Origin: Escherichia coli
GTDB taxonomy: Bacteria; Pseudomonadota; Gammaproteobacteria; Enterobacterales; Enterobacteriaceae
Direction: 5' to 3' (one strand)
Assembly (NCBI RefSeq): GCF_030013205.1
Contig: NZ_CP122648.1
Length of the DNA stretch: 64,000 nt
Made by a program: the position numbers and the translations under genes. Numbering within the stretch: position 1 is the stretch's first letter; every line of letters starts with the position of its first letter. The notes beneath the pieces were generated by a model. The model did not search any database. It worked only from the letters and a program-made list of their open reading frames with translations, and was not told the DNA's origin. Shown piece after piece: positions 15,800 to 16,046 of the stretch.

Positions 15800-15863
15800 C
15801 CATGTTGATTACCTTTTGGCGGGTATCCGTTTTTTGTTTTCCCTTGTGATACCCGCCCTTTTT
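15800..15863 (+). ncRNA. DicF-like small RNA (candidate), ending in an intrinsic terminator
   Basis: GGCGGGTATC…GATACCCGCC stem + CTTTTT directly upstream of a dicB homolog; architecture recalls DicF (recalled, not aligned). Confidence 0.4.
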
Positions 15864-16046
15864 AAAGTGAATTTTGTGATGCGGTGAATGCGGCTCAGCG
15901 CACGCGGAACAGTTAAAAAGGCCAGTTGACTTCCGTATTGGTTCTTATGGGTGGGTTCTCTGTATCCGGCGTTAATTATTAACTGGTTAACGTCACCTGG
16001 AGGCACCAGGCACCGCATCACAAAATTCATTGTTGAGGATGCGATA

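Follow-up and report, generated by a model that had tools for sequence, protein, structure and literature searches.

A candidate DicF replacement and an STnc100/PasD-type leader with a predicted RNase III site upstream of dicB in an Escherichia coli prophage

DicF, an sRNA that influences cell division, metabolism and EHEC virulence, belongs to the bacterial sRNAs that have been known longest. In the T7 early region, the lambda N leader and sib, RNase III cuts separate functional RNAs and reset the ends of the downstream messages. Two papers citing Faubladier 1990 (PMC5069750, PMC9438474) report that the full-length dicBF RNA of E. coli K-12 is cut by RNase III to a 72-nt DicF (53 + 19 nt), while the 53-nt form ends at the terminator of DicF itself. 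The 190-nt K-12 precursor of DicF is processed by RNase III as well as RNase E, and its 5' end is made by RNase III (PMC10448788). DicF pairs with ftsZ via its 3' part and with xylR via its 5' end (PMC5069750). The EPEC sRNA PasD is a structural homologue of STnc100 (preprint 10.64898/2026.05.13.724894) and a 173-nt Hfq-dependent sRNA (PMC8550237 Table S6), and STnc100 overlaps an Hfq-bound RNA downstream of stx2B (PMC12711010).

The window, which is the whole stretch of 64,000 nucleotides that was analysed, contained at about 15600-16250 a region that matched a prophage of E. coli K_EC180 at 100% identity and the dicF-dicB region of 4717 of 5426 complete E. coli genomes at 86-89%. The RefSeq order in the identical K_EC180 locus was ydfC, an antisense hypothetical gene, dicB, a DUF1482 (ydfD-like) gene, an exonuclease pseudogene, integrase and yccA. 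The interval is probably the sRNA-plus-leader segment of a Qin-type dicBF operon, with an allelic replacement of DicF followed by an RNase III-cut leader of the STnc100/PasD type. The features of the sRNA part and of the downstream gene were as follows:

15604-15796, + strand, conserved segment upstream of the sRNA slot, 92.7% identical to K-12
15797-15863, + strand, candidate sRNA in the DicF slot, from its fold and its synteny with DicF
15797-15817, + strand, 5' single-stranded region of the slot sRNA, called module B
15818-15857, + strand, hairpin of the slot sRNA with a 10-bp stem GGCGGGUAUC/GAUACCCGCC and a U-rich loop
15859-15863, + strand, U5 tail of the slot sRNA
16035-16039, + strand, Shine-Dalgarno sequence GAGGA of dicB
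16047-16229, + strand, dicB coding sequence, from NCBIfam CellDivInhibDicB (126.5 bits, cut-off 100) and the RefSeq annotation of the identical K_EC180 locus

The stem with a T-run which the sequence-only reading had placed upstream of dicB was recovered with a repeat finder as GGCGGGTATC (15818-15827) and GATACCCGCC (15848-15857), two arms 100% complementary and 20 nt apart, with TTTTT following at 15859-15863. Stem and T5 (15818-15863) occupied the exact place of DicF in K-12 and EDL933, and alignment, RefSeq annotation and the DicB family match all put the element in the DicF position, from the ydfC-distal precursor to dicB. A terminator hairpin of DicF type, with a GGCGG/CCGCC base and a U tail, was present. 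The RNA from 15797 to 15866 folded at -18.5 kcal/mol (z = -4.7), and 0 of 200 shuffles folded as well. In its predicted fold the slot RNA left about 21 nt at the 5' end unpaired, then formed a GC-rich stem of 10 bp with a U-rich loop and ended in the U5 tail, which is how Hfq-dependent sRNAs are usually laid out.

Alignment with K-12 and EDL933, which the sequence-only reading had called for, showed the element to be syntenic with dicF, with divergence from K-12 confined to an sRNA body of about 56 nt (15797-15852, 44.4% identical) and, further downstream, to an insert at 15918-15958 (43.9%). Identity to K-12 was 92.7% upstream (15604-15796), 96.9% over the stretch that starts with the 3' half of the terminator and reaches helix P3 of the leader and 96.7% from the insert up to the dicB ATG, so that the flanks of the slot stood at 93-97%. 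The upstream segment had its homologue in the 5' part of the K-12 DicF precursor of 190 nt, and the other RNase III site of the operon, at the precursor 5' end, lies within this segment; part of the segment recurred alone in Stx2c phages, in phage cdtI and in phage P1, where it is annotated as 'dicF-like region'. In the leader of the ban operon of phage P1, that annotated region matched only the precursor segment upstream of DicF.

Of the DicF-like sRNA proposed in the sequence-only reading, the likeness held for position, layout, the GGCGG...CCGCCC-U5 base and the existence of intermediates, but not for the Rfam DicF model or for complementarity to ftsZ. The Rfam DicF model (RF00039, cut-off 48 bits) gave no match in the window at the gathering score and none in 15500-16300 even at E<=10, a result that the sequence-only reading had named, together with the lack of a small transcript, as refuting its proposal, while the syntenic site of K-12 and EDL933 scored 76.7 bits. 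Compared with DicF, the element shared the slot, the terminator base UUGGCGG...CCGCCC-U5, the downstream AAAGUGAAUUUUGUGAUG and the neighbours ydfC, dicB and a ydfD-like gene; it differed in the 44% identical body, in the covariance-model match and in a weaker ftsZ duplex, and both pairing regions of DicF (5' single strand and loop) were replaced. Thermodynamic prediction with RNAduplex against ftsZ -70..+30 gave -38.5 kcal/mol (z -1.2) for DicF and -26.6 kcal/mol (z +1.1) for the window variant, with 88% of shuffles equal to or better than the latter; the extended DicF-ftsZ complementarity was absent from the predicted duplex of the variant.

As judged from these alignments, the window element is tied to DicF by its position and by intermediates, yet is not DicF by the test of the family itself. 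The segment 15797-15863 would be an allelic replacement of DicF that fills its slot, with the conserved precursor on the 5' side and the dicB leader on the 3' side. Its RNA would most likely be made as DicF is, by termination at its own hairpin and 5' trimming of the operon transcript. Since both pairing regions are replaced and the ftsZ duplex is worse than most shuffles, we infer DicF-type biogenesis with a different target set, most likely that of an Hfq-type base-pairing sRNA acting on targets other than those of DicF.

A survey of the slot took in 124 loci that share the upstream anchor: 120 came from IMG/VR, three from RefSeq, and one was the window. The 5' modules in the slot were of two kinds and the hairpins of at least five. 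Module A was of DicF type, module B (AACCCAUGUUGAUUACCUUUU) was of window type, and every slot hairpin type kept the GGCGG...CCGCCC-U5 base. Scores in the DicF model stepped down from 76.7 to 43.5 and 41.1 (A+H2) and 34.1 (B+H4), and then to none (the window, B+H3, and A+H5). The window allele was present in 194 of 5426 E. coli genomes and was unannotated everywhere; 81 of the allele records matched at 99% identity or more, and about 100 were sub-variants at 90-95%. The allele-bearing strains listed include O121 and other STEC and porcine ETEC, and elsewhere the variant stood in intact ydfA-ydfB-ydfC-...-dicB operons, as in strain 120899 (NZ_CP025916). A literature search for the variant sequence returned unrelated primer matches only, and the published probe sequences of EPEC PasA, PasB and PasC did not match the slot variant.

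The DicF slot thus appears to be a cassette for which several different sRNA bodies exist, the window type being the most divergent of the common ones; no prior description was found. A more sober account takes the stem and T-run as a mere intrinsic terminator, the remnant of a decayed DicF without regulatory function, and the repeat downstream as a mere processing or decay signal. Such decay would agree with the absent Rfam DicF match, the lost ftsZ complementarity, the fruitless literature search and the lack of a recognisable promoter in the window prophage. Random decay would, however, ignore cassette borders, whereas divergence was found only in the sRNA body between flanks of 93-97% identity. 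The 21-nt module B was identical across the aligned B-type variants, which bear two different hairpin types, and the allele persists in about 190 genomes. The hairpin stem was kept through changes across the different hairpin types, and a phage carried the cassette as a tandem duplicate, so that we regard a decayed DicF as unlikely, if still deserving some weight, and continue with allelic replacement.

That phage was vB_Apl-pPE4 (PP818812), the only sequenced phage with the variant, which there stood before kil instead of dicB. In it (L245 3395-3581) the variant cassette was duplicated in tandem with the junction inside the 5' arm of helix P1 (between ...GAATTTTGTGAT and CCCCGCC...), and the duplicate was followed by the leader element and kil, not dicB. 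The host in the record is Actinobacillus, while the region resembles an E. coli lambdoid phage.

Downstream of the slot, the window leader of about 150 nt (15868-16029) was bounded by a long helix, P1. Its features were as follows:

15868-15886, + strand, 5' arm of helix P1, TGAATTTTGTGATGCGGTG, 19 nt, 100% complementary to the 3' arm
15890-15905, + strand, hairpin P2, GCG.GC[UCAGC]GC.A.CGC, canonical form CCC.CC[UNNGC]GG.N.GGG
15906-15967, + strand, helix P3, GGA 15906-15908 with UCC 15965-15967
15969-15993, + strand, hairpin P4, GCGUUAA 15969-15975 with UUAACGU 15987-15993
15996-16010, + strand, hairpin P5, CCUGG[AGGCA]CCAGG
16011-16029, + strand, 3' arm of helix P1, CACCGCATCACAAAATTCA, 124 nt from the 5' arm

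The arms of P1 had been described in the sequence-only reading as a 15-bp perfect inverted repeat that could form an RNA duplex, for example an RNase III site, or a DNA operator. The repeat finder placed them at the same site and extended the perfect repeat to 19 nt. By our own arithmetic, a perfect 19-nt inverted repeat is expected by chance about 1e-6 times in 800 nt (about 3e5 position pairs x 4^-19). The 199 nt from 15862 to 16060 folded at -75.6 kcal/mol (z = -5.6), with the repeat as a 21-bp helix closing several hairpins; the 21 pairs count G15867.U16030 and A15866-U16031 and amount to about two turns of regular double-stranded RNA.

In K-12 (L001), DicF lies at 3210-3262, and the 72-nt form, as given in the two papers, would end at 3281. 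With the 5' arm of P1 at 3272-3290, the K-12 cut would fall after the 10th nt of the 19-nt arm, a position taken from two secondary sources and our own arithmetic. By analogy, the RNase III cut in the window is predicted near 15877/15878, and the geometry of 2-nt 3' overhangs would put a second cut near 16021/16022, leaving a 25-nt dicB leader. RNA-seq of the K-12 rnc mutant against wild type listed rnc-dependent peaks in two spacers: dicF-dicB, with 26 reads against 0 and flagged as known, and kilR-sieB, upstream of kilR (MG1655 1418510), with 41 reads against 0 (PMC5371410 Table S1). Because read numbers are 26 and 41 within a long list of low-count sites, these peaks are counted as consistent evidence only. 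The kilR-sieB peak, unflagged by the authors (PMC5371410 Table S1), falls at the homologous leader element.

The proposal of an RNase III site is supported by the end of the 72-nt K-12 DicF within the P1 arm, as reported in the secondary sources, by the rnc-dependent peak and by + strand substitutions of duplex type. By analogy with K-12 the RNase III reading appears right, and it is in substance already published for that strain. In transcripts that read past the sRNA terminator, the 19-21 bp of P1 would be a substrate of RNase III, as shown for the K-12 homologue, and cleavage would separate the 3'-extended sRNA from the dicB message and remove the structured core. The dicB message would be left with a leader of about 25 nt, and its stability or translation would probably be altered. 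The helix shares with phage intercistronic RNase III signals a length of about two turns and a place in a polycistronic phage transcript. It differs from those of T7 and lambda in that P1 is no simple hairpin but closes a conserved, pseudoknotted multi-helix domain, one that also occurs elsewhere without the long helix.

Arm substitutions were scored in 32 distinct spacer haplotypes of dicB type (75 loci). Twenty-one of the 25 were C-to-U changes at four positions, all giving G.U and several of them frequent, and one C-to-U/G-to-A pair converted a C-G pair into U-A. Three pair-breaking G-to-A changes (A.C) occurred in a single haplotype each, and the copy of phage P7 had two fully compensated pairs in the helix. 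A C-to-T change on one strand of the DNA is a G-to-A change on the other, so that such an asymmetry is meaningful only for an RNA duplex of the + strand. The operator option of the sequence-only reading, broadened here to a DNA operator or recombination site, is in keeping with the perfect 19-bp symmetry and with a mosaic neighbourhood in which cassettes are exchanged. It is contradicted by the + strand excess of C-to-T over G-to-A, by the identity of the arms with P1 of an RNA family in which P1 and five other helices covary, and by the RNase III dependence documented for K-12 in the papers citing Faubladier 1990 and in PMC5371410 Table S1, and we consider a DNA-level function highly improbable. 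The arms are taken below as helix P1 of an RNA.

The sequence-only reading had missed that the domain closed by this duplex is structured, conserved and of the STnc100/PasD family. The Rfam model STnc100 (RF02076) matched the window at 15870-16024 over model positions 21-154 with 33.5 bits (E = 1.9e-5), below the gathering score of 47, and the repeat arms corresponded to the outer stem of the model. The K-12 and EDL933 elements scored 34.4 and 39.7 bits, also below 47. A covariance model, R1, was made from 95 canonical elements of other Enterobacterales with no sequence of dicB/kil type, and it matched the window at 15875-16022 over its full length (68.3 bits, E = 1.1e-19); no second R1 copy was found in the window. 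A scan with the motif TCACCNGGAGGCACNNGGCACC in one genome per species gave 112 loci with about 118 copies across Enterobacterales, often several per genome, in Enterobacter, Citrobacter, Pantoea, Kosakonia, Rahnella, Salmonella and other genera.

In the family architecture derived from 105 distinct copies, P1 combined an invariant core, GGUG/CACC, with an extension that covaried; it was followed by the junction AAU, P2, a 3-bp P3 around a hypervariable insert, P4, UCA and P5, and the strand immediately 3' of P3 formed a pseudoknot with the P4 loop. In the 95 canonical sequences, pairing was seen in 92.6% of the cells, as compared with 79.9% for column shuffles. The covariation score was 0.364 against 0.143 for shuffles; 0 of 500 shuffles reached the observed value, and slid controls gave 0.087 or less. 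Another alignment of the family (A3) behaved similarly. P2 was 99.6-99.8% paired with 4 of 5 pairs changed on both sides in the family alignments, P3 was 90-96% paired with covariation, and P4 was 85-98% paired with up to 6 pair types. P5, within the near-invariant motif UCACCNGGAGGCACNNGGCACC (15993-16014), was 100% paired, with G-C changed to U-A in the dicB/kil subfamily.

In the window, P3 enclosed the 5' strand of the pseudoknot, CAGUUAA (15910-15916), and the hypervariable insert (15918-15958), while the loop of P4 bore the 3' strand, UUAACUG (15979-15985). All 5 of the 5 pseudoknot pairs scored were changed on both sides, and they were 78.8% paired on an alignment made from sequence only. 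The strand pairs included CAGUUAA/UUAACUG (window), ACUGGU/ACCAGU, AGGCUAC/GUAGCCU, GUGAUACC/GGUAUCAC and others. The STnc100/PasD-type family therefore appears, from this covariation, to have a pseudoknot, of which no prior description was found. The insert itself looked like a second hypervariable cassette (43.9% identical to K-12, flanks about 97%); at least five alternative P3 inserts occurred among related loci, and the window type seemed to be linked to module B.

The same element was found upstream of kilR (Rac-like phage), of kil (Shigella phage 75/02) and of terB/tciA (phages P7 and P1). A hairpin like that of the DicF slot preceded the element at kilR and kil, and none was seen in the P7 alignment. 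Canonical copies almost always had a P1 of 6-11 bp. The seven longest copies had 20-28 pairs with one or two defects, and six of the seven were dicB- or kilR-type leaders, the seventh preceding an ORF in Citrobacter braakii; of the remaining scored copies, three had a P1 of 12-15 pairs and the rest 5-11, mostly 6-9. A terminator-like hairpin stood within 160 nt of 43 of 109 family copies (about 40%), mostly 30-60 nt on the 3' side, and the dicB/kil type was without one; no terminator-like site was found between 16029 and dicB. PasD-like copies had a linker and then a terminator behind the domain, with the reported seed of PasD mapping to the linker.

Set against STnc100, PasD1, PasD2 and EcOnc27, the dicB leader had the same helices P1-P5, the same invariant GGUGAAU and UCACCNGGAGGCACNNGGCACC, the same insert position and a prophage context. 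It differed in its score below the Rfam gathering value, in a P1 of about 20-28 bp against 6-11, in running into the dicB ribosome-binding site with no terminator or seed after the domain, and in its place in the early-left operon and not in the late region. On the covariance models and alignments, the RNase III helix is a lengthened form of P1 in an STnc100/PasD-type domain, one also found in front of kilR, kil and tciA; no prior description of this was found.

Further copies were noted beside other genes. In phage P1 (L125, with 2553-2654 and 3837-3966 recorded for this element and the 'dicF-like region' together) and phage P7 (L124 2496-2621), an STnc100-like element lay directly upstream of tciA/terB and near phage tRNA genes, and another copy (L205) was followed directly by tRNA genes. 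Trabulsiella guamensis (L179-L184) had seven copies in one genome, and two copies stood in tandem 30-90 nt apart at some loci (L179-L184; L171, L149 and L234). A put-like antiterminator RNA as in HK022 was considered for the domain and rejected, because R1 was without a match in HK022 24000-40751 and PasD ends normally at its own terminator.

The domain at 15868-16029 might itself be a trans-acting or protein-binding RNA like PasD or STnc100/EcOnc27, released by RNase III, with the separation of sRNA and mRNA being secondary. The strong match to R1 and the invariant junction and loop nucleotides, which together with the pseudoknot suggest a specific partner, are compatible with this, as are the Hfq dependence of PasD, whose 5' part is the domain as judged from the PasD-like locus L200, and the overlap of STnc100 with the Hfq-bound RNA downstream of stx2B (PMC12711010). 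In L200, however, the PasD seed (PMC8550237 Fig. S5) maps 3' of the domain, beside the terminator, and the dicB-type copy has neither seed region nor terminator. Because reads from the K-12 core appeared in the rnc mutant but numbered zero in the wild type (PMC5371410 Table S1), cleavage seems to destroy the core rather than to release it. A released domain is therefore given a small chance, and the separation of sRNA and dicB message at P1 is preferred.

In partition function calculations the dicB Shine-Dalgarno sequence had an unpaired probability of about 0.1 before the predicted cut and of 0.8-1.0 after it. Masking by the terminator U-tract as an extension of P1 was rejected, as shuffled upstream sequence masked equally (0.29 against 0.35 for the native one), and leaders of kilR type differed from the dicB leader in masking behaviour. 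Unmasking of the Shine-Dalgarno sequence by the RNase III cut may be kept as a weak possibility. In a 279-nt minimum-energy fold, the 5' region of the sRNA paired with the start region of dicB, and this pairing was rejected as no better than that of shuffles (fraction 0.19).

The window prophage was without dicA, dicC, ydfA, ydfB and the dicBp promoter, its immunity region being absent, and at 14653-14691 ydfC (14692-14910) adjoined two replication genes of the opposite strand, DnaT-like and P, which were truncated. No sigma-70-like + strand promoter was found in 13600-16500; a promoter inside the spacer (TTGACT at 15927) was dismissed, as the consensus scan of 15400-16500 gave none on the + strand. 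Expression from this prophage is doubtful on account of these losses and of the lack of such a promoter; the operon promoter region is deleted, and the dicB/sRNA locus may be silent.

If sRNA bodies are exchangeable in the slot and the processing scaffold stays fixed, prophages could re-aim a host-directed regulator while leaving the machinery that makes it untouched, and about 4% of sequenced E. coli would bear an unstudied regulator. The RNase III helix, taken as P1 of an STnc100/PasD-type domain, would tie an orphan prophage RNA family to K-12 dicF-dicB and kilR. Genetics can be done at these K-12 loci, for which rnc, rne and hfq mutants exist, so that what the domain does is open to direct testing there. 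The genes found behind the domain were dicB, kilR, kil, tciA/terB and one for a 233-aa signal-peptide protein. Speculatively, and with a good deal of doubt, the domain could be a ligand-, protein- or polymerase-binding device placed before accessory or host-killing genes and sRNA 5' ends, the DicF slot a hotspot where sRNA specificities are swapped as cassettes, and the K-12 dicF-dicB and kilR leaders tractable models for the orphan family.

Other features of the window were also recorded. An ORF of 151 aa with paired CxxC motifs (15046-15501, - strand) lay antisense between ydfC and the DicF-precursor segment; it was absent from K-12 at the same place, had no NCBIfam match and is 'hypothetical' in RefSeq. 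Two other Rfam matches above the gathering score, IS009 at 555-753 (- strand, 223 bits) and the PyrD leader at 47358-47431 (- strand, 98 bits), were unrelated. The exonuclease gene 3' of the ydfD-like gene was split into ORFs at 16516-16740 and 16753-18987 (+ strand), and it is annotated as frameshifted in the identical RefSeq locus.
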